Below are positions 40,884-61,499 of a stretch of DNA of 64,000 bases, piece after piece. The DNA is from Octopus vulgaris (taxonomy: Eukaryota), in assembly GCA_951406725.2 (NCBI GenBank), contig OX597818.1:28706001-28770000 (forward strand). Reading direction: 5' to 3'. The translations under genes and the position numbers were made by a program. Position 1 is the stretch's first letter, and each line of letters opens with the position of its first letter. A model generated the notes under the pieces. The model saw only the letters and a list, made by a program, of their open reading frames with translations. It searched no databases and was not told the DNA's origin.

Positions 40884-41181
<298 letters not shown>

Positions 41182-43104: not shown

Positions 43105-43377
43105 GACACTAAGCTAAATTAAGAGAAATTAATAGAAGTCAAAAGCATTTATGAACAAGACATGAGAAAATGAAAAGGTAACAATGAAGAAAATGAAAAT
43201 GAAAAGATAAGAAAATGAGACAGTGTGAAAGGGTAAGAGTTTTTAATAGATTACATAAACCTTAGACCGCCTGAATAGATACACGAGAAGAAAAATTATG
43301 TATCTTACAAAAAAATACAAATTTAGTATTTCTAATTTATACCTTAGTTTAAGCCTGTTTTACACACACACACACAC

Positions 43378-43414
<37 letters not shown>

Positions 43415-43867
43415 GAATTGACTAAATTATAACAAAAGGAAATTAACTGTTCTTGAAAAGCCAGTATTTACATTCTTATGTAATATTATTAAAAAAGGAA
43501 CAAATCTTTGTCTGTCTTAGGATATGATGCGAATTGGAAGCAAATTGACTTATAATTTGGTAATTTAGTCAGTTCTTCTTCTGTGTGTGTGTGTGTGCAA
43601 GTGCACGTGCACAAAAGACAGGCTTAAACTAGGATATAGATTTAAAATTCTAAATTTGTATTTTGTTGTAAGATACATAGTTTTTCTGCTGGTCTATCTT
43701 TAAGTGTTTTGATGTTTATGTAATCTATTAAATACTCACCTTTTCACACACTCTCATTTTTTCATCTTTTTGTTTTCATTTTCTCAATTGTTACTTCTTC
43801 ATTTTCTCCTGTCTTGTTCATAAGTGCATTTGACTTCTATTAACTTCTCTTAACTTAGTTTGATGTC
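43105..43867. repeat. Long imperfect fold-back (arms about 320 bp, loop about 115 nt)
   Basis: 43105-43440 is a diverged reverse complement of 43555-43867. Confidence 0.88.
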
Positions 43868-45096: not shown

Positions 45097-45159
45097 TCAG
45101 TTCTGGAAGCTTCTAGGTTCCTTTTGTTCATCTGAAGAACATAGACCTTCACTGGTAAC
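45097..45159 (-). CDS. Terminal coding exon of tyrosine-motif tail gene (VTSEGLCSSDEQKEPRSFQN*)
   Basis: Strong acceptor ttttattctttcattttgtag|G; phase 0 matches the upstream 23-nt exon; TGA at 45097-45099. Confidence 0.6.
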   Translation of the reverse strand, partial: VTSEGLCSSDEQKEPRSFQN

Positions 45160-45299
45160 CTACAAAATGAAAGAATAAAAATGCACACGAGATCCTGATC
45201 TCTTAAACAGTTATTTGATGCTTGGTAATTTTGAAAGTAATTACATGCTTTGCAGAAAAATAATTGGAAGTAGTAGTAGTAGTAGTAGTAAGGTTATAA

Positions 45300-46330
45300 A
45301 CAAAAAAGATGTGGGTGCAGATCCTGTCATGTAATCCTTTAAAGGCTGACAAATGGTTCGCTGTTAGGATGAAAAGCATTACAGATGAGCTGTCACCCTG
45401 AAATATTCCTGTAGATAATATAACTTTGTTAGTGACTATAGTGGTAGTTCCAGTTCTTATTGATAGTTCTTGTGGACCATGATGTAGTCAGTCCCTTAAT
45501 AACAATGAATATATCATTTAGAACCTCAACAGAATGAGGTGACTCTCTTATCCATAAGTAATAAGCAGAATCAAACAACTTCTTAGAGTCTAACCATACA
45601 GTCAATAAGTTTTAGCAATGCTGTTTTGTTACCTTAAGGAAGGTTTATAAGAAGCTGTTCATCCCAGCCTATGACTCCTTTCTTTCCTCTTGCCTACTCT
45701 TCAGCCACCATATTGCTTATTCCAAAGTGGACGTGGAGGAATGCATTCAAGAAAACTGTATATAATTCATATATAACCTTCAAGTATGCCATGAGCTTGT
45801 AGTTTTTGGTCATATGCTCCTCGTGTTTTGCAACTAGTGTTGTATGTGCAGCTGTCTGTCAATCTAGTACATTAATTTCAGTGTTAATTGTTCCTTTGAA
45901 CAGTTTTTTTCATGGGTTTTCCTATAGAACATGTGCTTTCTGTACCAATAACTATCAGCTCTCTCCAAGATGATTTTCTGGTTTGGTAGATTTTGCAGCA
46001 ACTGTCAGGGGAGTTTACAGTGCGATTCTGATGTGGGGATGAGAGCAAATTTTCTTGGTAATGGTTGTTTATTGTCAGTTGTTTGGCACTGAAGTTTGGA
46101 TAGTTGGAGTATTATAGATCAGTGAAAAATATATGAAGAGTGTTAGAATTTACATAAAGTTTTAATATTCATGAGAGAAAAAGGTGTAATAGATATTTTT
46201 TTGAGATGTGCAGTGTTGTGTTTTGGTGATCTTTAACAAGATTAAGTTATTGGTTCTAATTGCAAGATGCTTTACAGGTTTCCATTTCTGAAGAACTTCA
46301 AGTTGAAACACATATGAATGCTTAGCGATG
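45300..46330 (-). mobile_element. Decayed R4/Dong-like RT fragment (intronic)
   Basis: Minus-strand KKLFDSAY and GIFQGDSSSVMLF (RT QGD motif). Confidence 0.55.
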
Positions 46331-47127
46331 AAAGAATTCATGGTTGTATGTTTCCATTTTGTAAGTTCAGAAACTCATGCAGAGTTTAAACAAAGACAGG
46401 TAGCAAGCCAATTTAGTAACTGAGTGTCTGAGAATTTAAATAACTAATATCAAAAAACTTAATAAGAATTTAAACAAATTAATAAAAACTTAAATATCTA
46501 TATGTAATTCAGCCTAAAACTGCTGTGAAATGAGAAAAATATCAGAACTATATAGTGAATGAAAAATTCTTGATTCTTAAAGATAAATTTAGGTACATAA
46601 AATGATGAGAATAAATTAAATCTAAATCCTCTAATTCCATAAGTATTTTTAGAAATATATAGAAAATCCAAGCTTCACCAATGAATATGGATGAAATGAT
46701 AGTGTACAAATCCTGTACATATATAATCATAACTAAGAAAAAGAGACAAATTTATTTATTATATATAATTCAGAGAAATATAAGTATAAATAGTTTCTTC
46801 TTTCATAGGCTTAGATTTTAGTTTACTATTACTTGCATTATTTTATATACCCATGTTCTGCATATGGATATATGGATATAATCAGGTTAGAATAAAAGAG
46901 AATGTAAGAAACTGTTAATTTAGAAACTGTTAGTTGAGAGTTTAGGATATTTTTGAATGTACAGTTATACTTCCAGAACATATTTGAGAGATGGTTTTCA
47001 ATACATGACATCTTCATTAAGGAAATATTATGAAAGAAGTAAAACCAGTAAAATAGCTTGACTTTAAATACAGTATTAAATTCATGAATAACAATACTTA
47101 CAAAATGAAAGAAGAACTTAATCATAC

Positions 47128-47150
47128 CTCAACTATTCTGACACTATCTA
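47128..47150 (-). CDS. 23-nt micro-exon (V)DSVRIVE, phase 1 to 0
   Basis: tttgttttcttgaaag|TAGATAGTGTCAGAATAGTTGAG|gtatga; the acceptor resembles the exon A acceptors and joins B4 to the terminal exon in frame. Confidence 0.6.
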
Positions 47151-47644
47151 CTTTCAAGAAAACAAAGCATGAATGGTCATTAGAAAAACTTATTTCAAAA
47201 TAAATATGTTTTAAGACAATATCTTCATATAACAACTTATGGATTAATCTCATTTCTTTGTTGTTTTCGTAAATGTCAATAGGGTTGCAACTTTTAGTTT
47301 GTGCAGGTGTAGAATACAACAACTGGGTATAAAATACAGAGTATATAATATATGCAATACATTACAAAGCCCAACAAAAACAAAAAGTGAAATTATATAA
47401 TCAATATTAAAAATAATGAGTTTTCTCAGTGAATAAAAATTAGCATGCAAAATCAACCTAGTAGATGACTGAAATTTATTATGTAGATCAGAAAAAGATG
47501 AAAGATAAAACTGACATCAGTGGTATTTGAGCTCAGAATAGAGTGGGACTAAATTTAACACCTTCAAGTATTTAGTATGGTATTCTACTATATCAGTCAC
47601 TCAAATATATTTTATTGATATTTAAACATAATAATGTTTAAATA

Positions 47645-48203
47645 ACCTCATGGCCTATGCCAGGGGTGTAACCAGTTCACTTATGCGTACCTTCCCTTAA
47701 TTGGACACTAAACTCTGCTTGTGAAGACCTGTTGAGGCAAATCGAAATTGAAATAAAATTCGATGACTGGCATCCATGCTAGTGGATTGCTAAGAGCACC
47801 ATCCGAGCATGATCGTTGCCAGAGTAGCTAACTGGCTTCCATGCCAGTGGCATGTAAAAAGTGCCATTCATGCATGATCGCTACCAGTGTTGCCTTACTG
47901 GCACTTGTGCTGGTGGCATGTGAAAAAAACATTTGAGCGAGGTCGTTGCCAGTGCAGGTGGTATGTACAAAACACCATTTGAGAGTGGCCATTGCCATTA
48001 CTGCCTGACTGGCCCTCGTGCCGGTGGCACATAAAAGCACCCACTACACTCTCGGAGTGGTTGGTATTAGGAAGGGCATCCAGCTGTAGAAACTTTGCCA
48101 GATCAGATTGGAGCCTAGTGTAGCCATCTGATTCACCAGTCCTCAGTCAAATCGTACAAACCATGCTAGCATGGAAAGCAGACGTTAAACGATGATGATG
48201 ATG
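47645..48203 (+). mobile_element. RTE LINE 3' UTR fragment
   Basis: Colinear with 7140-7522; (GAT)n tail. Confidence 0.85.
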
Positions 48204-48685
48204 TTACCATTAAGAGAAGTCATTCACTATCTTCCAATGTTACTTTCATGTCAGTGGTGTCCATGAGCAGGACTGATTGTGGGTACTCAAAACAGTTTCT
48301 GATCAAGATGTGAAACATTCACCATTGCAAATTTGCTCTATACATTATGCTTCATGTCTAGTAATCTCAATACTAGTTTTATCAGTATTTGCTTTATTTG
48401 TGTAAATAGAGCTTACAAAAATATACACATGAACTATACTATTGTAAGGATTAATAGAAGTGCACAATTATGGAATTAATATGAATGTCTAGAAGATGCA
48501 GCTTATATGCAGTTGAATTTTAACATTTTAATGGTTTTCTTTAAATACATGCATATATATACTATTAAGCAGCATATTCCACTCAAGGAATGAGCCAAAC
48601 TTTTTACTAACTTTACCAGGACTGATTCCAATGACAGGGATGATAAATGAATATAATTTTATTAATGGATTGCTTATATACTTAC

Positions 48686-48727
48686 CACTAGGTTTCTTCA
48701 AAACATTAACATAAGCATCATCCAAGT
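48686..48727 (-). CDS. 42-nt micro-exon B4: xLDDAYVNVLKKPS
   Basis: tttttttaatttcttaaag|ACTTGG...CCTAGTG|gtaagt; phase 1-1. Confidence 0.8.
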
Positions 48728-48826
48728 CTTTAAGAAATTAAAAAAATAAATATGTAACATGGCTATAAATAATACCTAAAATATGTTAGCAGTGTGTATA
48801 TATATATAAATTATATATATACATAT

Positions 48827-49346
48827 ATTACATGGAAAAATGTGAGCATGAAAAGTAATATTCTTAAGATTATAAACCTGGAAAAGTATAGGACAAGTTA
48901 TTACACCTGTGAAAGTACAGGACAAACTATTACTTCAAGTAAAGTAAAGAATAAGCAACTTTTTCCTTAAAATATTGCAGCAAAGAATGTCATTTCTTCT
49001 AATTTATCACTCTTCACAGTTTTCATCTTTTAAATTTATTGTACAAAACTGTTGATCTAATTTATAAGTTTGTCTAATTAGTCACTTTTTTCTGTATTTA
49101 AGGTAGTAAATTAGCCAAATTCTATTTAAATAAGTATAGTGTTATTTGTAAACTATAAAAAATGATTTTTAATACTCAAATTTTAATTTTAGTGGCAATG
49201 TTTTAAGTAAAAAGTTTCTTATTCTTTACTTTTCTTGAAGTAATAGTTTGTCCTATACTTTTAAATGTGTAATAACTTGTCCTGGACTTTTCCAGGTTTA
49301 TAATCTTAAGAATATTACTTTTCATGCTCGCATTTTTCCATGTAAT
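48827..49346. repeat. Fold-back element (arms about 150 bp, spacer about 215 nt), MITE-like
   Basis: 48827-48978 is the reverse complement of 49195-49346 with scattered mismatches. Confidence 0.85.
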
Positions 49347-49870
49347 CCATGATTTTTCCACGCATTGCTGTTATAAGTTAATTAATAATGTGTCAGTTAA
49401 TAATTTAAGATTTTACCTTATAAAATACTCAAAGATAATATTTCAATTTTTCCATGTAAGTGATGATAATATTTCAATTTTTTCATGTTTAATTTAAATA
49501 TATGTTTTGATTGAATTAATGGCTGGGATTTTTACTATGTTGTTGGTTGCACAATGGCTCACCAAATGTTACAAACAACAAGACCCCAAAACCATCAGTT
49601 ACCAGACTCACCTTATGTAACCTAATTTTGCAATAAAAAATGACTACTATTGTACTGTCAATTTTATGCAAATATTTGGTTTTTCATAAATTAAAACCAT
49701 TTTATAAACCAAAAAAACTATTTTTAATTTCCAAATTTAAGAAAATGTTCTTGTTACTTTTTTCTATTTATGAATTTGGTTCCTAAATAATCATTAATCA
49801 ATCATACAATCTTCGTCTTAAATTTAATTTTTAGTTACAATTCCACTGAATTTTGTTTTTTAATTTGTTT

Positions 49871-50560
49871 ACATTTTTTTCCATAAATGATAAAACAATG
49901 TCAGGCAATTTGGGAGGAAATTTAGTATGTCTTTTTGTAATGATGTTGTCATTGATTTCATCCCATATATCATCTCTAGTTTTAATCAGTGTGACCTTGC
50001 TCTAGATGTTGGTCCTCTATGAATAACAGCAGCTTTAGAGGAAATTTGTGCCAAATATTTGCTGCCTTTTTTATCTGAAGTTCATTATATCACGTTTGAT
50101 TCTTTTTTCCATATTAAAATTTTGATTAATTAAAAATCTATTAATTTGAATAACAAGATATTTAAATTCAGGAGGAAATTCAATTCTGGAAGTAATTTCA
50201 TGTTCAGTATTGAGTGAACATGTTTCACAATTTTTTGTAAGTGAATATGTTGTGGTTTTAGTAATCAAAAATTTAAATTGTCGAGGACCATTAGTTGGTT
50301 GCAGAAACAATTCTTCTTTTAAATCAATAGGTAGTTGTGATTGTCTACCACAAACAATTGTATTGCAGTTGCAAATTATATTTATAAAGATGTTGCAAGT
50401 ATGTTGATACAATCTAATGCATCTAGCAGTGTCATATTTGATGAATGTAAACTTTTGTTGAGATTACATTTGAAGATAAAGATAAATTTCTTTCCAAAAT
50501 TCATGAGCATATTATTGGCTTCTATCATTAAATCTTCCACCAATAATCCTTTCTAAATTT
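49871..50560 (-). pseudogene. Degenerate intronless ubiquitin-specific protease (peptidase C19-like) remnant
   Basis: LLDALDCINIL (QxDA-like box), CxxC, YLVIQINRF, AAVIHRG...GH (His box, frameshifted) and IWDEINDNII, in USP order. Confidence 0.55.
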
Positions 50561-50899
50561 GCATCAGTGTTTTGAATATGATAAAGAATATTTGCACGTG
50601 TGATTTAGGAAGGGGGATACTTTGGCTGCTATTTTTAGCATGTTGAGCGACCAGATAAAGGCTCTTTCATTGGTTTGATTGCGTGATGAGATTTTTAAAC
50701 ATATATGTAAAATGTATATTTATCATCAGCAGAAGTTTATTATGTATGCAATGAAATTTTAACATCTTCAAAGTTTTAATTTCAATCATACATATATATT
50801 AAGCTGCATATTCTACTCAAAGAAAGAATGAGCCAAACTATTTGCTAATCTTGCTCTAATGAATGTAATTTTTTCTTAATAAATTGCTTATATACTTAC

Positions 50900-50941
50900 T
50901 AGTAGGTTTCTTTGAAACGTTAACGTAAGTACCATCCATGC
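50900..50941 (-). CDS. 42-nt micro-exon B3: xMDGTYVNVSKKPT
   Basis: tttttttaatttcttatag|GCATGG...CCTACTA|gtaagt; phase 1-1. Confidence 0.8.
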
Positions 50942-51186
50942 CTATAAGAAATTAAAAAAAGAACAAATAGCATGGCTATAAATAATATTTAAATTAAGAT
51001 AGTTGTGTACTGATTCTACCATGATAAATACTAATGAGATAGACTCAAACACACTCACACATACATACATGCATATTAATACACAAAAGTTAAAGAGTGA
51101 CATTTTTCGTAATAGTTAGCTGTCTGTCTATTTTAAAGATAGGTTCTAAGATCATGCTGTGTACTAACAATATTGATTGTACTTAC

Positions 51187-51246
51187 TTCGTTGTCCCATT
51201 TCTAAATATTTCGGCTCGCTAACCTCAGCACATTGTTCTTCCACAG
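51187..51246 (-). pseudogene. 60-nt exon A3 with mutated acceptor (AG to TG): xVEEQCAEVSEPKYLEMGQR
   Basis: Homologous to A1; donor gtaagt intact, acceptor ttgatg, Tyr to Cys change; possible cryptic in-frame 15-nt exon at 51187-51201. Confidence 0.65.
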
Positions 51247-53029
51247 CATCAAGAAATTAATTTAAAAAATAGGCATATTTATTGTTTGGAGATGATGATA
51301 TGAATATTTTGATGATACACAGAATGTAGCTGTTATATATATGTATATATAGTAGAATAAGAAATAGAAAGCCATTAGTACAGTATTATATATTTGAAAA
51401 TCTGAATAGAAATGGCGTTTTTGATAATTTTTCCACTTTAATAATTAGATGTCTAGAATCTAGTTAGTTTCATACCTAAAATCAGCTCCCTTTAATTTTG
51501 CTCAGCTTGTTTTCAATTTTGGTGTATTGATACTGTTCTGTATTTTGATTATGCTCAACCAATTACTTTATCTCATAAATTAAAGAATCTGATGTTATTT
51601 GGAATTAAAGTTGGGAAAATCTGATCAATTTTAGCCAATCAACAGACAGTGAGGCATTAACAGCCAGTTATCATGTTAACCACACATTGTGCTGATTCTT
51701 TACACAACGAGATTCACTTCATCCACATGTTTTGTTTGTGTATATCACTGTTTTTTTAAAATTTTCTGGAAGATTTATATCTATCAATTAGAATTTTATT
51801 GTAAATGTTTTTCGTCAATTTTTTAAATATTTTACTTATTCTTTTATATATTTTTCATATATATTTTACATATATTTCATGAAGTTTTTCTGTGTTTTTC
51901 TGTTTTTACTGTTGCTTTGAATAGCCACATCCACATTCACATTCAAGCCATTTAATTGTACCACTCTGAAGGAGATTTTGAAAACAGAGGTGGATGCAAT
52001 AAATTATAAAGTCACTCCTAGATGTGCTCCATTCTCTGATGCCCAGACATTCTCTGTCCCCCCTCTCTGTCATTTCTACTGTACTATATGGCTTCTGCTC
52101 CTTGCAGCTAGCTGAGCTCACCTCACCTCTCAAACGTTCCCATCCCATTTGCCTCTTCTCTTTTCATTATCCCTCTTATGTCCAACCCCATCCAGCCCTA
52201 CCTAAAAGGCCTCATACTTATGGATATGCTCAGTTTTTCCTCCCCAAAATGGTTTCCCTCAAGAAATCCTTCCCTGCTCATATCTTTCCCACAAATGTTG
52301 GTTTATGAAGGTTCACAAGGCACATCAATGTCCTTAATCATTAACCTCATTCATCCAGATGGTCTGTGAAGGGCATAGGCAATGTCCCTTTTTCAAACCC
52401 AACATAGGTAGAAGACAAAATATAAAAAAAGATCAAACCAAAACTAGGCTGAAAGATTCTTGCTCAAGGTGTGATGGAGTTAGATTGAACTCAATACTAA
52501 CATGTCAGGATTATGATGTGAACTTATTAATCACCTGGTCGTGTACCCCTCCCACAAACCTGTCAGAGATGTAGAAGCAAAACTGTACACGTGGTGGGCA
52601 AGTAATGTAATTGGTAGGTTTGGATCCAGCTGAGGTAGAAATAATAAACCCCATGGAACTGAAGCTGGCAGAATGAATCAGAATCAAAATTATTTCCTAA
52701 ATGATATGGAAGGAAAAAAGGGCACAGAATTACGGGTTGGGATGTGAAAGACAGAGATTGTGAGGAAATTTTCCATTGTATGAAACATAAAATGATTAAA
52801 AACAAAATGAAGGAAACCTGCCCATCTCACTTTTCTTTTTCCATGAGGTATGGAACTTTGAAGGACAGTTGTTCCAAAAATTATGTCCAGAATGGAGTGC
52901 CAGACTAAATGCTTTGTTCTATTTAGTTATGTTCCTCTGCATTCTGAATTCAAATCTCACACAAGTCAGCTTTAACTTTAATCCATCAGGTATCAATAAA
53001 ATAAATTATACTAGAATAGCTTGCCAATA

Positions 53030-54105
53030 ACATCACATTTCTCCTTTCTTTTGATTATCTTTATTCTTCTTTTGGAAAAGGGGATTATCACATTGACTCT
53101 TCTTCCTTTTGTTTTTGTACAGGTGCATTATACATGCATCTTTGAACTGCTGGGGAACAGATCCAGTTTCCCAGATCAAACAGATCAATTTGCACAGCTT
53201 ATTTACAATTTGACTGCAACCATGCTTGGACACCTCTATGGGAATATCGTCTTGTCCAAGATCTTTACCATTGGAAAGTTTTTCAATAACAGTACTTGTC
53301 TCTTCCAAGGAAGGATGTTCCACTAGTTCTTCAGCACTGCTAGTGGATTCTTGATTTGATACAGATGTAAAGTGTTCAGGTAATCTTTTTAGAATTTCAT
53401 CTTTCCTTCTTATGAGTTGTGTTACATCATTTGAGGTAGTACAGAATCTATTCTGTACTACCTTTTTTGGACCAAACACATTTTTCAGAATGTTATACAG
53501 TGTTCTCAAGTTGTGAGAGTTAGCAGCCTGTTCCAATTCTTGGGCTTGTTTCGTCCACCAAACTTTTCATCTCATGCAGTTTTCTGCATAGATTTTCTCT
53601 AGAGATGTATAGGAATCTGGATGTTGGCAAGTATTTGTCTGAGATCCATGTCTTTTGTCTCTTGTGCAAAGTTTCTAGGAGAGGTTTAATTTGAGAATCA
53701 TTCTTGTTGGTGTTTGTGCTTCACAAATCCTAGAACTACTTCAGCAGATGATTTGATGCTGTCATGTATATTGTGCCACCATATTTTAGGCATTCCTCTA
53801 TTTCTGCAATCTTTGAATTTAAATGTATTTCAAAATTTTTTATCATTTCTAGATTTTTTAAAGAAGCAATGTTTATTCTTGGATGTAAACTGGATTTTAG
53901 TGGCCTCTTTCCATATAGTTTAACAAATGCCTTGCTGTGAATCATTCTGTGATCCAAGTAACACTTGGATGTTATGTGAGTTCTGGTGAACCCGAAATCA
54001 CTGCAATCATTGTTCTTAGTTATAACATAGTCCACATATATCAGTGACTAGATCAGGGATGCTTCCAGGCACTTTTGTATTTATTTGCCTACATAAACAC
54101 TGCAT
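53030..54105 (-). mobile_element. Decayed RTE/BovB-like LINE fragment
   Basis: DYVIT...DHRMI; GKDLGQDDIP.E...IWETGSVPQQFKDACIMHLYKNK. Confidence 0.75.
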
Positions 54106-54109
54106 CTGG

Positions 54110-56060
54110 TGCTGTTCCAGTCCCATTCATCTAGAGATCGTGTGTCTGTAGATGAAGCCTCACTGAACAGCAGAATTCAAATGCCACTCAAGGAGAAGGT
54201 TGCTGGTCGGTACCAGTTTTTTGGGAAATCAATTAAATGCAGAAAGAAGAGAGTGACAGAATTATTGAAAGAGGTGACACTACTGTGGAGAGATAAGCTG
54301 AATTTTCCAATCATTTCCAAGCTCAAAAATGTGCTTCATTTGTATGACAAATGCACCTAAAAAAGACAATTTGAGCCATTAGAAGAACTGTTCAATATCA
54401 ACAAAGTCTGCAATGAATGGCTTAATGCTGATGATAAAATGCTTTATTCTATCCAACTCCAAAGCCAGGGCAAAATGGGTTATTCGACAAGCAAAGCTGC
54501 AAGCAAGCACACTATCCATAATTCCAAGAGAAGATGCTCGGATGCTGAAGCCTCCCATTCTTTATCAAACTCAGCAACCCTGGTACTGACAGTGACTCTG
54601 AAGAAGAAGAGATTGAAGAGTACAATTATGGTGAAGATGACAGAGTTGATCAAAACGATATAGATAGTGATGGCACTTATTCTTCCACAAGAAGGAACAA
54701 CAAATCTGCAATTGGTATGAGATTTGTAACTGAAACAAATGTCTCTACCTACAAAGCTGCGAAAATCTGCAAAGAATTGTCAGAGGAGGACATTGATATC
54801 CCAGCTCCTAGTCAGCAAGGCATTTTACAATGCACTGTTTGAGAAAGCTGGTGTAATGAAGAAACACTTGATCAATACACTAGGCAATCAGAAATGGGAC
54901 CTGCATTTTAATGGTAAACATATTGACGGAAATGAATATCAAGTGGTAATCATCAAGATAAAACAAGTGAAATTAAGCTGGCTGCTCTGAAGCTGTGTGG
55001 TGACAAGGCCGAGACCATTGCAGGATTGAAAAGCATCTTGGATGAATTACACTTTTAGGGTGAAATCTTAATGATTATTGTTGATACGACAAGTGTGAAT
55101 ACCGGATGAAAGAGTTGGGTAGTGGTTAGACTGCAGAGAATTTCTTGAGCAAATGCTATGATGAGCCACAATTCATGAGCAACAAACACCATGTCTTGGA
55201 CAGAATCCTGCATATTTTCATGGATGAGGAGCTAGCTAGTGCAGGCAATTCACTCAATATCGGATATTTTCTTGTCAAAGAACTCATGACAAGTTATGAA
55301 GAACTTCAAGGCTCCTTCCAGTATGGAAATCGTCATAGTAGATCAAGCTGGTTGGAGAGATGATATGAAGTTCCTGTTTCACTTAACCCATGCCTTCAAG
55401 TTCTTCCATGGAAAAAGAGACATCCCTTTCATCAAGTTTCAGAAAATCCCAAATATCAGTAATGCCAGATGGAATTTGCAAGCAATCCTAGCCCTTCTTA
55501 TATTTTTACTTACGCCACATGTGAGAGATTGCATATGGTCTGCCACTTCATCTCATATGACTGTGCAGACCACTGGTTATAGAGCTGAAGATTATGCAGA
55601 GCTATCACAAACCTTACTACTCTAGAAGACTTCTTTGAAATGCTTGACAAATCACTGGAAACAAGAGCTCTCAAAACTAAAGATCAGCAGAAGCAATTAA
55701 TGCTGTGAGTGAGCAATTAAGGTCATGCAAGAACTACACACCACATGCAAGAACAAAGCTAACCTGCCATTGAGTTTCATTCTCTCTATTAGACTTGCCG
55801 CAACTTGACTATTGACTAATTTGACTTTATATGACTTACCTTCTTTTTATTATTCTGGAATGCAGAATATAATTCTTTTAACAGTTATGGATCTTTTTTT
55901 CCTTTATTGTTTATTATTCTATCAGGGTCCTAGTTTTTGGAAACCCACCCAAATGCAACCAAATATAAAAATTTCAAAGTTAGTCATGAGTGAACTTTTT
56001 TGAGCAAATAGAAAAAAAAAAACATTGATTTTCATAGTCTTCTAGCAAAAACTCGACAGA
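54110..56060 (+). mobile_element. Decayed hAT-like (possibly hATm-type) transposase
   Basis: LHFNGK, DTTSVNTG, xxHHVLDRIL, ISNARW and C-terminal SN..CE.AIK motifs, with many stops. Confidence 0.55.
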
Positions 56061-56739
56061 ATATGATACAGGACTATGGAGTTACAAAAAAGTTGTATCC
56101 TCAGTGCACACAGCACGGTGAGATACTGTGACCAGGTTTTGGGTAGGTGTTCTGCTTGCTATGGGCAGGTCTTCTTGAGCATGGCAGGGCACCAGCCCTC
56201 CCAATCCATTGTCATCTCTTCTGCAAGGCTCAGCATTTTGAGGTCAGTTTACACAACCTCATCCCATACTGTTGGCAAAGATCTCTAATAGCAGTTACTA
56301 AGACATCTGAAGATGATGCAATACTACTATTTAGTGCATCATTTTTATGAAACAAACAATTAGTATTGCATCATCTTTGAAGGAATGATGAAACATTGCA
56401 TCATAATTCAACAAGTTAAAAACATTGACAGCCTGCCAACCATTCATTTGTCCTTTGTAATCCTTCCACGAAATATCAAAGAATCAAAAGCTAAGCCTTG
56501 AAGAGATTTCACAATTGTTATCCAACTTTCATAAAGAATGGGAAAAAATTATTTGTGATGAATCTTCTTTTCCTGAAGAGGATAATGAAAATGATCATGC
56601 CAGTATTGCCTATTCAGAATTGGATATGATGACAACAAAATGATTCTCCAAATCCTTCAATGATGTATGTACAGCATTATTTGAAGGATAAGTCTGAAAC
56701 TGAAATGACTCAGGAAGAACAATATTGAAAGGGCACAAG

Positions 56740-57010
56740 AAGAACTCCATTCTACAATGTTTACATGAACAGCTTGGACCTTCCCATTTTGCAAGTAGAT
56801 TTTATGATTCAGCTCTTTCATAATTTATATTATTCATGAAGCCAAATCTGGAAATCCAAATATGGACAAATGCTGAAGGAACTTGGGTCTATAAAGATAA
56901 GTGAATAGAAATAAACTCTGCTGAATTTAGAAAGTTTATTGGATTGATTATTCTTACAGTAGTTTCCAAATCCAAGCATGAAAACATTACTCAAACTTAG
57001 AGTTTTGGAG
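56740..57010 (+). mobile_element. piggyBac-like transposase fragment
   Basis: IWTNAEG...EFRKFIGLIIL..SKS pattern. Confidence 0.35.
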
Positions 57011-57249
57011 ACAGACACCCCCATTGCAAACACACTCACATACACACATGAATGCATAAATGTACATATAAACTTATATACGAATACATACATCCACATG
57101 CACATATATATTGGTGATGTACACAAATACATAACAGGTATACATAATACTGAAATAAGCAACCCATATTGATTCCTGTGTGTAGAAATCAATGGCTTCA
57201 TAAAGTGCAACTGTAACAACTAATGTGAAACAAATGCATACATACATAC

Positions 57250-58760
57250 ATCATCATCATTTAACGATGCTAGCATGGGTTGGACGGTTCGACCAGGGTC
57301 TGGGAAGCCAGGAGGCTACACCAGGCTCCAGTCTGATCTGGCAGTGTTTCTACAGCTGGCTGCCCTTCCTAAAGCCAACCACTCCGTGAGTGTAGTGGGT
57401 GCTTTTTACGTGCCACTGGTACGGAACCCAGTCAAGGCAGCGCTGGCATTGGTCATGTTCGGATGGTGCTTTTTATGTGCCACACGCACAGGTATCACAA
57501 CTACAATTTCCATTTGATTTTTATTTTGATGTTGATGTACTTGACTCAATAGGTCTCCTTAAGCACAGCAGGTCGCCCTACAATCCAAGGTAAGCACAGC
57601 AAGCCGTCCTGCAGTCGATGGCACTTTGGATGGGCTGGGGCTGCTATGTGAAGCTGGTGCAGGAAACAGCCATGAACTCACGTTATTTGTCAGGTCTTCA
57701 CAGTCACAGCATATCTCCAGAGATCTCGGTCTTTCGTCATTGTCTCTGTGAGGCCCAATGATCAAAAGTCATGCTTGACCACCTCATCCCATGTCTTCCT
57801 GGGTCTACCTCTACCCCAGATTCCTTCAACTGTTTGGGTGTGGCACTTCTTCACTCATCTCTCCTCATCCATCCATAGTACATGACCATACCAGCGCAAA
57901 CATCTCTCTTGCATGCCACATCCAATGCTTCTTATGTCCAGCATTTCTCTCAGGGCACTTACACTCTGTCGTCTGTGCACACTGACATTAAACATCCAGC
58001 GGATCATACTAGCTTCATTTCTTTCAAGCCTACACATGTTCTCTGCTGTCACAGCCCATATCTCACTACCTTGAAGCATGACAGTTCGCACACATGTGTC
58101 GTATAATCTACCTTTCACTCTGAGCGAGAGACCATTTGTCACCAGTAAGGGTAGAAACTTTCTAAACTTTGCCCAGGCTATTCGTATTCTAGTGGTGACA
58201 CTCTCTGAGCATCCACCTCCACTACTAACTTGGTCATCTAGGTAGTGGAAACTATCAAGTACTTCTAGTTTCTCTCCCTGGAGTGTGATGGAATCTGCTT
58301 TCTGAGTATCTGTGGTGTCTATTGCCCCTGTGCATCTGCTGCACATGAAAGTTATCTTCTCAGTTAGTTTTCCTCTGATGTTGCTGCACCTCTTATGCGT
58401 CCATAGCTTACAGTGGGTACATCTTATGGAGTTTCTACCTACACCTTTTCTACAGATCGAGCAGGGCCACCTACCTGAAGGGGTGTGTGGTGAGTTTGCC
58501 TTCCTACTTACTAGAACTTTGGTCTTTGCAACATTGACTCTAAGGCCTTTTGATTCTAAACCTAGCTTCCACACCCAAAATTTCTTTTCTAGTTCCGGTA
58601 GTGATTCTGCTATGAGGGCCAGGTCATCAGCATAGAGGAACTCCCAGGGGCATCCCATCTTGAATTCCTCTGTTATTGCTTGGAGGACTATGATGAATAA
58701 AAGGGGACTGAGGGCTGAACCTTGGTGGACCCCTACTTCTACCCGGAATTATTCACTTAT
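57250..58760 (-). mobile_element. RTE LINE 3' half
   Basis: ORF 57855-58658 with YADDL, WPCSICRKGVG and RLYDTCVRT; VHQGSALSPLLF upstream. Confidence 0.92.
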
Positions 58761-59173
58761 ATTAATATAACAAATAAAAATAAAAATAATAAAAATATAC
58801 AAAACATACAGAAATCAATGAAGAGAGAAAAGAAACAGTAAGATGATAGATGTTGACTTCATTAGGTATTTCTGTTTATTTAGAAACCTACAATGAACAG
58901 GTCATTTCACAGATGCTAAACTATAAATTTCACAGGGTAAAACCTTAAAGTTGACACCACTAAGTTGAGAATGTTACAACGCAGAAAATTTCTGTCTCAC
59001 TATTGGCTAAAAATACACAGTTTTTCGAGTTTTCATCAAATTCTTTCTCCACAAGTACATGGCTTCACAGGAATAAGCATGTAAAACTACATCAATATAA
59101 CCGATTTTCAAATATTTTACTTCCTTTTAAGAGATGCAGATTTTATGAATGAAACAAACAAGATCTGATGCGG

Positions 59174-59404
59174 ATAAGTTTAGAAAAAGGTAACTCTTGA
59201 ATTCAGATAGTCAACCAAGGCATGGGTGAGGGCAGTTGCTGAGGCCATTGCTTCTGCTTTCCTTTTCTAAAGTTCTTCACTGGCCTGTTGCTGTGGAAGG
59301 ACCTTCAAGAAAAAAGGAAAGCAGAAGCAATGGCCTCAACAACTGCCCTCACCCATGTCTTGTTTGACTAACTGAATTCAGGAGTTACCCTTTTGTAAAC
59401 TTAT
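59174..59404. repeat. Hairpin/MITE-like palindrome (arms about 95 bp)
   Basis: ataagttt...catgggtgagggcagttgctgaggccattgcttctgctttcc pairs with ggaaagcagaagcaatggcctcaacaactgccctcacccatg...aaacttat. Confidence 0.88.
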
Positions 59405-59861
59405 AAACATCTAACTATTGAAGTAGAAAAATTATCAGAAAAGCCATTTCTATTCTTTTTTCTACAAATATAATTATATATATACACATACATGTATTTA
59501 GAAACAAAAAATATTTAAATCCAGCCAGAGTCCATGTACAGTATATGATCTTCATCCTCTCATTTACATATTGTTAAAAAGAAAAGTATTGTCTAATAAA
59601 TTTATTTGGTATGAACAAAAGGAAAAAAGGAGTAATTTTGGTTAATATGACATTTCAAAATTAGACTTTGGAAAGAGGGTTCCTCAGTAAAGTGGCACCC
59701 AAAATTCTATTCTACAAGAAAGATGCTAATGATTATGTAAAAGTAGTACTTATTGAGAGGCTGATTGTACAAAATTTACTTCACTGGGATATAATATCAG
59801 AATGTACTAACACTAAATTTTTTGTTAATAATTTTTGTTAATAAATTGCTTATATACTTAC

Positions 59862-59903
59862 CAGTAGGTTTCTTTGAAACATTAACGTAAGTACCAACCA
59901 TGT
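59862..59903 (-). CDS. 42-nt micro-exon B2: xMVGTYVNVSKKPT
   Basis: ttctaatttcttaaag|ACATGG...CCTACTG|gtaagt; phase 1-1. Confidence 0.8.
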
Positions 59904-60148
59904 CTTTAAGAAATTAGAAAAAGAACAAATAGCATGGCTATAAATAATATTTAAATTAAGATAGCTGTGTACTGATTCTACCATAATAAATACTAATGAG
60001 ATACACTCAAACACAGTCACATATACATACATGCATATTAATACACAAAAGTTAGAGAGTGACATACTTCATAATAGTTAGCTGTCTGTCTATTTTAAAG
60101 ATAGGTTCTAAGATCGTGCTGTGTACTAACAATATCAATTGTACTTAT

Positions 60149-60208
60149 GTGGTTGTTTCATTTCTAAATATTTGGGCTCGCTAACTTCAGCATATTGTTC
60201 TTCCACAA
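60149..60208 (-). pseudogene. 60-nt exon A2 with mutated donor (GT to AT): xVEEQYAEVSEPKYLEMKQP
   Basis: Acceptor tatttcttgaag intact; donor reads ataagt. Confidence 0.65.
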
Positions 60209-61177
60209 CTTCAAGAAATAGAATAAAAGGCATATTTATTGTTTTCAGGGTGTGATTTAAATATTTTGATGATACACAAAAAGTAGCAGCTATATATATT
60301 TAGTACAGTTTGCACTATTTCCATCACTTCAATATTTGGTTGTGATATTTAACTTTAAGGGAAGCTATTCACAAATATGTTTAGAGCAATAAGGGTTTTT
60401 CTAAGATAAATATCTTGCTAGAGTTATAAATAAACAGGAGTGATTTTGGATACTAGAGGAGAACAGTTAATCACATTTACTATTGCAAATTTATTCCCAT
60501 TCATTGTATCTCATGCCTTAGCAAATATCTACTGAATTCATCATTACTTAATTATTTAGATTTTTTTGTACAAATAAAGCTTTCAAAGTAAATGTTTATG
60601 AACTACATCATTAAGGGTAAGGATTGATAAAAAGGTAAAATATTAGAGTTAAATAGGAATATCTGTAAGAAGTTTATCGTATATGCAATGGAATTTTAAT
60701 ATTTTGAAAGGTTTTTAGGTGTGGCTGTGAGGTAAGAAGTTTAATTTCCAAACACATGGGTCTGGGTTTAGTCACATGATGAGGCACCTTGGGCGAGTGT
60801 ATTCTGCTATAATCCTGGGCTGACCAAAATCTTGTGAATGGATTTGGTATATATATAAGGGAGTGTGTGTGCCTTTGCGTTTGATCCCCATCACCACTTG
60901 ACAATTGTGTTGATTTGTTCACATCCACAAAACTTAGCAGTTTAGCAAAAGAAACCAATAGAATAAGTAAAAGGCTTAAAAATAATAAGTACTCAGGTGG
61001 ATTTGTTGGACTAAACCCTTGAAAGTGGTGCCTTAGCATGGCTGCAGTTCATTGACTGAAACAAATAAAAGACATGCATTAAGCTGCCTATACTACTCAA
61101 AGAAAGAGTGAACCAAAATTTTGCTAACTCTTGCTCTAATGAATGAAATTTTATTATTGGATTGCTTATATACTTAC

Positions 61178-61219
61178 CATCAGGTTTCCTTGAAACATTA
61201 ACATAAGAAATCTTCATGT
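61178..61219 (-). CDS. 42-nt micro-exon B1: xMKISYVNVSRKPD
   Basis: tttattttttaaag|ACATGA...CCTGATG|gtaagt; phase 1-1. Confidence 0.8.
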
Positions 61220-61439
61220 CTTTAAAAAATAAAAAATAAAAACAATAAATAGCGTTATGTTAGTATTGTGTTGATACTACAATAATAAATGCTAATGAGA
61301 CAGACTCAAACTCACTCATACACACATATTAATAGATAAAAGTTAGAGAATGATACATTTCATGACTGTTAGCTTTCTGTTAATGTTTAAGATAATTTTT
61401 AAGATCATGCTGTGTACTAACAATATTGTTTATACTTAC

Positions 61440-61499
61440 CTGCTGGTTTCAATTCTAAATAACTGGGCCCACTAGCTTCAGCATATTGCTCTTCATTAG
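61440..61499 (-). CDS. 60-nt micro-exon A1: xNEEQYAEASGPSYLELKPA
   Basis: aattttttgaag|CTAATG...CCAGCAG|gtaagt; phase 1-1, both sites intact. Confidence 0.78.

Follow-up and report, generated by a model that had tools for sequence, protein, structure and literature searches.

On the minus strand of a 64,000-nucleotide stretch of the Octopus vulgaris genome (assembly GCA_951406725.2, contig OX597818.1, here called C5, positions 28706001-28770000; hereafter the window, from whose start the positions of the tail exons are counted) there is a series of small repeated exons whose predicted product is the tyrosine-bearing cytoplasmic tail of a cell-surface receptor. The repeated element is an intron-exon unit, of which four diverged copies (pairwise identity 72-89%) lie where an original prediction, made from this DNA without database searches, had placed them. 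Four exons of exactly 42 nt, which we call B1 (61178-61219), B2 (59862-59903), B3 (50900-50941) and B4 (48686-48727), are all intact as predicted: each is bounded by AG and GTAAGT, is of phase 1-1, has an open frame and encodes the motif YVNV, with codons that vary between TAT and TAC and between AAT and AAC. The 60-nt exons of the unit have fared less well. Three are present, as had been claimed, but both splice sites remain only in A1 (61440-61499), a phase 1-1 exon with two tyrosines, in YAEA and YLEL, which is included in the database models P0006, P0235 and P0240. A2 (60149-60208) has a dead donor, ATAAGT, and is likely a pseudo-exon. A3 (51187-51246) has TG as a dead acceptor, but 9 nt downstream lies an AG in the same frame, from which a 51-nt exon (51237-51187) could still be spliced; paralog database models begin A-type exons at comparable downstream AGs. 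Both of these damaged copies carry YLEM, and the motif YxxM is confined to them, so that its proposed role as a docking site for PI3K has been downgraded.

The N-terminal and transmembrane part of the protein, which had been expected beyond the right edge of the window, is found there. When database proteins are mapped back onto the DNA, Ig-like exons extend from C5:28952986 or beyond to 28850564, and encode an ectodomain of about seven Ig domains. One of them, Ig7, matches 14 database proteins, all labeled Octopus, and is 100% identical to P0001, an O. vulgaris model in which Pfam recognizes Ig_3, I-set, Ig_2 and C2-set_2 domains above cut-off; a fibronectin type III (Fn3) domain was found by Pfam in none of the four family proteins scanned. 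The mapped exons exclude the first ones of the window gene; as regards a signal peptide, its paralogs P0011 and P0053 start with stretches that, judged by eye, are hydrophobic. Beyond the Ig exons there is a 102-nt transmembrane exon (C5:28842956-28842855) with intact splice sites, encoding a hydrophobic run followed by KRR, then exons of 19 and 17 nt, which sum to 36 nt, two 42-nt exons with the motif YATI that are diverged B homologs, a 39-nt exon without tyrosine and, in order, A1, B1, B2, B3, B4 and the terminal exon. All junctions between the transmembrane exon and B4 keep the frame, the intervening exons all have GT/AG intact, and YxN is present in four of the six intact B-type exons of the gene. 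The two YATI exons (C5:28800894-28796846) jointly form YxxI-x10-YxxI, a spacing that resembles an ITAM, the tyrosine-based activation motif of immunoreceptors, only if both are included, and one of them is skipped in an O. sinensis isoform model.

The transmembrane and Ig exons upstream identify the window stretch as the predicted cytoplasmic tail of a type I multi-Ig receptor, in agreement with the original prediction. The gene belongs to a family, and its tail is not hidden as had been supposed. Models from O. sinensis and O. bimaculoides (P0006, P0235, P0239), and the model P0240 as well, contain the tail exons, and the tail is therefore partly annotated, yet uncharacterized, its relatives in the databases being uncharacterized Octopus proteins. 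P0235 joins the juxtamembrane 19- and 17-nt exons through to A1 and B1, and P0006 (O. sinensis) joins Ig7 to the tail. An AlphaFold model of the paralog P0011, built on an 8-sequence alignment, is poor (mean predicted local distance difference test score 45.7) and its fold matches in the PDB are generic tandem-Ig proteins; it therefore gives no indication of a ligand or of disorder.

The end of the tail probably differs from the one first proposed. Elsewhere in the receptor family the penultimate exon runs from phase 1 to phase 0 and carries a YEN or YES motif; its homolog in the window (47249-47300, minus strand), when aligned with the intact copy in gene 7 of the family, has lost both splice sites. 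The last two steps of the peptide originally joined, a 23-nt exon (47128-47150, minus strand) and a 20-residue end, are open to doubt. In two paralogs the sequence that aligns with the 23-nt segment has no GT donor, and the segment has been deleted from a duplicate of the window tail that is ~99% identical. At the start of the terminal exon (45097-45159, minus strand), direct splicing from B4 gives GYQ with a stop at 45149, and the frame of the earlier peptide gives a stop at 45097. The former ending, xYQ-stop, occurs in models P0006, P0008, P0012, P0021, P0057, P0234 and P0239 (the O. bimaculoides counterpart); the latter frame is used in P0235-P0237 (O. sinensis) and P0009, and P0235-P0237 enter it via a shortened, frame-shifting last module. 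From these alignments and models it is more likely that the tail ends three residues past B4. Three long inverted repeats in the window (48822-49351, 59167-59411 and 43105-43867; arms of 100-174 nt, 84-90% identical) resemble miniature inverted-repeat transposable elements, and one of them lies directly upstream of B4, in the position expected for an A exon, and could affect splicing.

The window gene is one of seven clustered family members on C5, defined by seven Ig2 and seven Ig7 exons at 27.44-29.30 Mb, that occupy about 2 Mb (27.44-29.39 Mb). The tail unit has at least 42 matches (57 candidates, 40 scored), on 3 of the 227 contigs, and the same three contigs bear matches to the family's Ig7 exon; on this distribution we reject a dispersed high-copy transposable element, an outcome that the original prediction had named as one that would overturn it. 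Counted in the stretches analyzed, which cover part of the tails, B-type copies number 58 (52 intact, 6 damaged) and A-type copies 39 (25 intact, with four 63-nt exons counted among them, and 14 damaged), and the genes have from 1 to 9 YxN exons each. As judged from these copies, the module exons undergo birth and death across the cluster. The ectodomain exons change fast among paralogs, with a pooled ratio of nonsynonymous to synonymous substitution rates (dN/dS) of 0.88 for Ig2 and 0.65 for Ig7. In gene 3 (C5:27.84-27.87 Mb) several B modules have Ser for Asn (YVSV) and the A modules are without their first Tyr, which suggests a changed binding partner. A 70-kb segment, C5:28570049-28639423, repeats the tail of the window gene (C5:28748280-28815915) at 95-99% identity on the same strand, ~179 kb downstream, without transmembrane or Ig exons; such a segment could have arisen by recent duplication, or be an alternative 3' end, an uncollapsed haplotype or an assembly artefact. 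Further copies of Ig7, of the tail or of both lie on C28 (8.0 and 10.7 Mb), C31 (2.85, 6.7-6.8 and 9.1 Mb) and C15 (67916583), near none of which did a search with the family's Ig2 exons find a match; the four Ig7 exons of C28 and C31 have identical scores, and the C15 copy has a stop. Two distant Ig2-like exons at C5:98.63-98.76 Mb, with 33-34% identity, perhaps belong to a second, older branch of the family.

Gene 7 (C5:29157503-29387555) stands on the opposite strand, head to head with the window gene, whose ectodomain is near-identical and closest to its own. In the cluster the closest ectodomains are those of genes 6 and 7 (Ig2 86%, Ig7 94%), but their tails are different: that of gene 7 consists of 51-nt LYAKV modules and ends in YAEL and TIYADL. 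The open frame of its Ig7 is without the first ten codons, and the gene may be damaged. An Argonauta protein, 43% identical across the ectodomain, has a tail that ends in a similar pair, YADL and TIYADI; the terminal TIYAD[L/I] of both we take to be a motif resembling the immunoreceptor tyrosine-based switch motif (ITSM). A cuttlefish protein (P0063, CAE1168733.1) has a homologous ectodomain, 31% identical to the Argonauta protein, and a tail of about five ~20-residue tyrosine repeats of a different set, three of them with YxN. Most of the other matches listed look like generic multi-Ig proteins at ~30% or below (judged with the names of 10 of the 150 listed).

Selection on the modules was judged against a neutral expectation obtained by simulation on a tree scaled by the flanking sequences, whose alignments are short. 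For the tests on YxN, nine copies of YAT[I/L] type were excluded, which reduced the 52 copies to 43, of which 33 are unique; the tests on A exons omit the four intact 63-nt copies. The original prediction had seen selection on the whole of YVNV. The tyrosine and the asparagine at +2 are indeed constrained: in the 33 unique exons they show 5 amino-acid changes where 13.1 are expected (P=0.0055). The constraint persists when the window peptides are removed (5 against 12.7, P=0.012, 27 exons). Asparagine alone has 2 changes against 6.9 expected (P 0.014-0.02). The two valines, on the other hand, have changed at the neutral rate (14 against 14.0), as has the residue at +3 (8 against 7.5). A proline in the B module also appears to be conserved, with P=0.006 in a post hoc comparison among 13 sites. 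A combined Y+N+K+P test was set aside as selected after the fact, and a stop-codon test on intact A exons as circular. Among the 45 unique B-type copies, AG..GT is kept in 39, where neutral drift would leave 10.3, and a stop codon occurs in one, where 16.1 are expected, a retention test with an upward bias, the splice sites being part of the search profile. Columns within the exons vary as often as flanking intron columns. The retained frames and splice sites, together with the constraint on Tyr and Asn, indicate that the unit being kept is an in-frame exon with Y-x-N. We rejected N-glycosylation of the sequence N-V-S: the tail lies past the transmembrane segment, and the serine is unconstrained (7 changes against 6.8).

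That single modules can be left out of the tail, as had been proposed, finds support in databases for paralogs and for the O. sinensis counterpart; for the window gene itself it is a reading of the sequence. All eight RefSeq isoforms of the O. bimaculoides gene LOC106874069, and all seven of LOC106869178, have a common ectodomain and transmembrane segment; what varies among the isoforms of each gene is the tail, through the presence of whole modules of 14 or 20 residues or through the last exon. One of the five isoforms of LOC106879981 omits a 14-residue module, the rest differing at their ends or in the ectodomain. In the O. sinensis counterpart of the window gene (LOC115229375), isoform X2 omits one YATI module and X3 omits the ISYVNV module (B1) as well. 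Such isoforms usually rest on RNA-seq introns; they are annotation models, and repeated exons can yield false junctions in them. Single-module in-frame skipping is, within this meaning, present in the isoform models of the paralogs and of the O. sinensis counterpart.

What would such a tail do? Grb2-family SH2 domains bind phosphorylated Tyr-x-Asn (pYxN), and stable recruitment of Grb2 to LAT needs at least two such motifs (PMC6669380, in excerpt); the Ig receptor DNAM-1 needs the Asn at +2 but not the residue at +3 (PMC4647266, in excerpt). The four Tyr-x-Asn modules of the window, if phosphorylated, would be putative docking sites for Grb2-type SH2 adaptors. Binding of a ligand would cluster the receptor, a kinase of Src or Syk type would phosphorylate its tail, Grb2 (or Drk) would attach at several sites at once, as it does on LAT or DNAM-1, and activating signals would follow. 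Exon skipping would set the number of docking sites per molecule, and unequal crossing-over, acting on symmetric phase 1-1 exons, would add or remove modules with the frame kept. We somewhat favor this interpretation, in which the receptor, once clustered and phosphorylated, would recruit a number of Grb2-type adaptors that follows its module count; this count would be altered in evolution as exons are duplicated and lost, and within the animal as they are skipped. The cuttlefish homolog, its tail likewise built of repeats and with three YxN, lends it support. A role in immunity or self-recognition would be a guess by analogy. Several observations weigh against tuned recruitment. Of the module copies, 14 of 39 A and 6 of 58 B are damaged, and gene 3 has exchanged Asn for Ser in several modules. 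Tyrosine taken alone is not significantly constrained (3 changes against 6.2, P=0.11); outside Tyr, Asn and Pro the B exons look neutral (pN/pS 0.81; 75 changes against 69 in the nine other codons), and the A exons are neutral throughout (pN/pS 0.97; 64 amino-acid changes against 64.9 expected). The neutral model itself is built on short flank alignments, skipping is known from annotation models only, in which repeated exons can give false skips, and P0001, the O. vulgaris model of this same locus, ends at C5:28795273, before the window tail exons.

In the principal alternative, which we hold to be a serious if less probable one, the array is for the most part a by-product of unequal crossing-over, by which symmetric exons are multiplied and killed; the skipping is splicing noise, one or two pYxN sites suffice and the number of modules is not tuned. 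The near-neutrality of most codons and the many dead module copies agree with such a history, as do the variation of module number among counterparts in three species and the signs of an unstable region, namely the ~99% tail duplicate without a transmembrane exon and the truncated copies on C28 and C31. A pure by-product fits less well with the splice sites and frames of the B exons, kept well above the neutral level (39/45 against 10.3, in the biased test), with the constraint on Tyr and Asn across copies, and with the presence of a repeat-built tyrosine tail in a cuttlefish too.

A second alternative accepts that the tyrosines function and assigns them to other partners, as inhibitory sites for SHP-type phosphatases, similar to the ITIM, the tyrosine-based inhibitory motif of immunoreceptors, or as Yxx-hydrophobic sorting signals. 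The last residue of YVNV, of YATI and of YLEL is hydrophobic, ITIM/ITSM-like pairs close the tails of gene 7 and of the Argonauta protein, and ISYVNV, as had been pointed out, matches the ITIM consensus [I/L/V/S]xYxx[I/V/L] (PMC9546547, in excerpt). This match is to B1 alone, one of the four YVNV modules of the window and the single one in the tail; neither -2 nor +3 is conserved across copies, and the consensus is fitted by 4 of the 44 intact B exons counted on C5, two of these being one exon in the gene and in its duplicate. The +3 residue changes neutrally (8 against 7.5) and Asn+2 does not (2 against 6.9); since both ITIM and sorting signals depend on +3, docking of Grb2 at pYxN fits better, and we regard the inhibitory or sorting role as improbable. 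The canonical ITAM (Yxx[I/L]x6-9Yxx[L/I]; PMC9546547, in excerpt) was also considered and rejected: the tyrosine motifs of the A exons are 4 residues apart, A1 has Ala at +3, and the spacing of the YATI pair is 10. Finally, it is very improbable that the window exons are unjoined to the receptor, the gene ending as in P0001 and the tail being either a remnant in decay or a transcript of its own. In favor of this, P0001 ends at C5:28795273 without them, several models (P0234-P0240) are of the tail only, and A2, A3 and the YEN exon are dead. Against it, the intervening exons have intact GT/AG and an in-frame sum, B1-B4 are all intact, P0235 links the 19- and 17-nt exons to A1 and B1, and P0006 links Ig7 to the tail in O. 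sinensis.

If recruitment of Grb2-type adaptors by the window gene is taken together with gene 7, a broader conjecture can be made. The cluster, fast-evolving as it is, could be an undescribed coleoid system of paired receptors, in which activating members, with one exon for each Grb2 site and a valency set by splicing in each tissue or cell, would be opposed by an inhibitory gene 7 with a near-identical ectodomain and an ITIM/ITSM-like pair at its end, for recognition of self and non-self or of pathogens. We offer this as speculation and think it rather unlikely.

Other repeats of the window include a degenerate reverse-transcriptase-like fragment, resembling a long interspersed nuclear element, in the intron between B2 and A3 (minus strand, about 57700-58750; judged by eye from its likeness to other open reading frames). 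A retroelement-like stretch at 53036-53434 (minus strand) is counted as a coding exon in models P0005, P0240 and P0241, probably an annotation error. Positions 40884-41181 are a perfect array of 74.5 copies of the tetranucleotide ACGC.

The CD22/Siglec-like and paired Ig-like receptors (KIR, LILR, NITR) are multi-Ig type I receptors in fast-evolving clusters. The octopus receptor resembles them in belonging to such a cluster, and its Atlas neighbors include a cluster with a CD22-like name; it differs in that its identity to non-cephalopod Ig proteins is mostly ~30% or less and in that no parallel was found for its repeated one-motif exons. LAT is without a large ectodomain. With LAT and DNAM-1 (CD226), the latter an Ig receptor, the octopus tail shares several putative pYxN sites in which the +2 Asn matters and +3 does not (PMC6669380 and PMC4647266, in excerpt); this is a likeness of motif pattern and implies no sequence kinship. 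Among invertebrates, the fester co-receptors (FcoR) of Botryllus are likewise clustered type I receptors of the immunoglobulin superfamily (IgSF), with one to four tyrosine motifs in varied combinations, and two of their genes swap an ITIM and a hemITAM by splicing, via intron retention and alleles (PMC12582321, in excerpt). The octopus receptor is set apart, at the level of these descriptions, by having each motif, mainly YxN, in its own duplicated symmetric exon. The Alr genes of Hydractinia also form a tandem cluster of single-pass IgSF receptors with recent duplications, pseudogenes, tyrosine motifs in the tail and alternative splicing, but the excerpted account (PMC9546547) describes few Ig domains with an Fn3-like region, canonical ITAMs and ITIMs, and whole transmembrane-and-tail blocks swapped by splicing, whereas the octopus receptor, again by description, has about seven Ig domains, no Fn3 by Pfam and no canonical ITAM. 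In the tail of crustacean Dscam, skippable exons, seven of them in shrimp, similarly determine whether predicted SH2-binding and ITAM motifs are present; there the exons are described as distinct and not as tandem copies of one motif, diversity is mainly extracellular, and a single gene with Fn3 domains is involved (PMC6851185, in excerpt). Membership of Dscam, with its order of nine Ig, four Fn3, one Ig and two Fn3 domains, was rejected: Fn3 is missing from all four proteins scanned, and the PDB match is to generic Ig only (E 0.0016).

The octopus receptor is a member of the IgSF and would, by analogy, work like Alr, FcoR and crustacean Dscam. In openly accessible papers (subscription journals and supplements being outside this coverage) we found no description of the family, also under its six LOC identifiers, nor of any cephalopod lineage-specific cluster of Ig receptors with tyrosine motifs. 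Clustered IgSF receptors with tyrosine motifs and skippable exons with SH2 motifs are known; what differs here is a tail that has arisen by serial duplication of a symmetric micro-exon with one motif, and this across a whole cluster. If our reading of the splicing is true, skipping likely changes how many signaling proteins dock, and a tail with one motif per exon provides a natural series of isoforms and paralogs in which to relate the number of SH2 sites to signal strength, a question so far studied mainly with engineered LAT. In Hydractinia, Botryllus and the vertebrates, self-recognition depends on lineage-specific Ig clusters with tyrosine motifs, and the octopus cluster is a concrete candidate for another.

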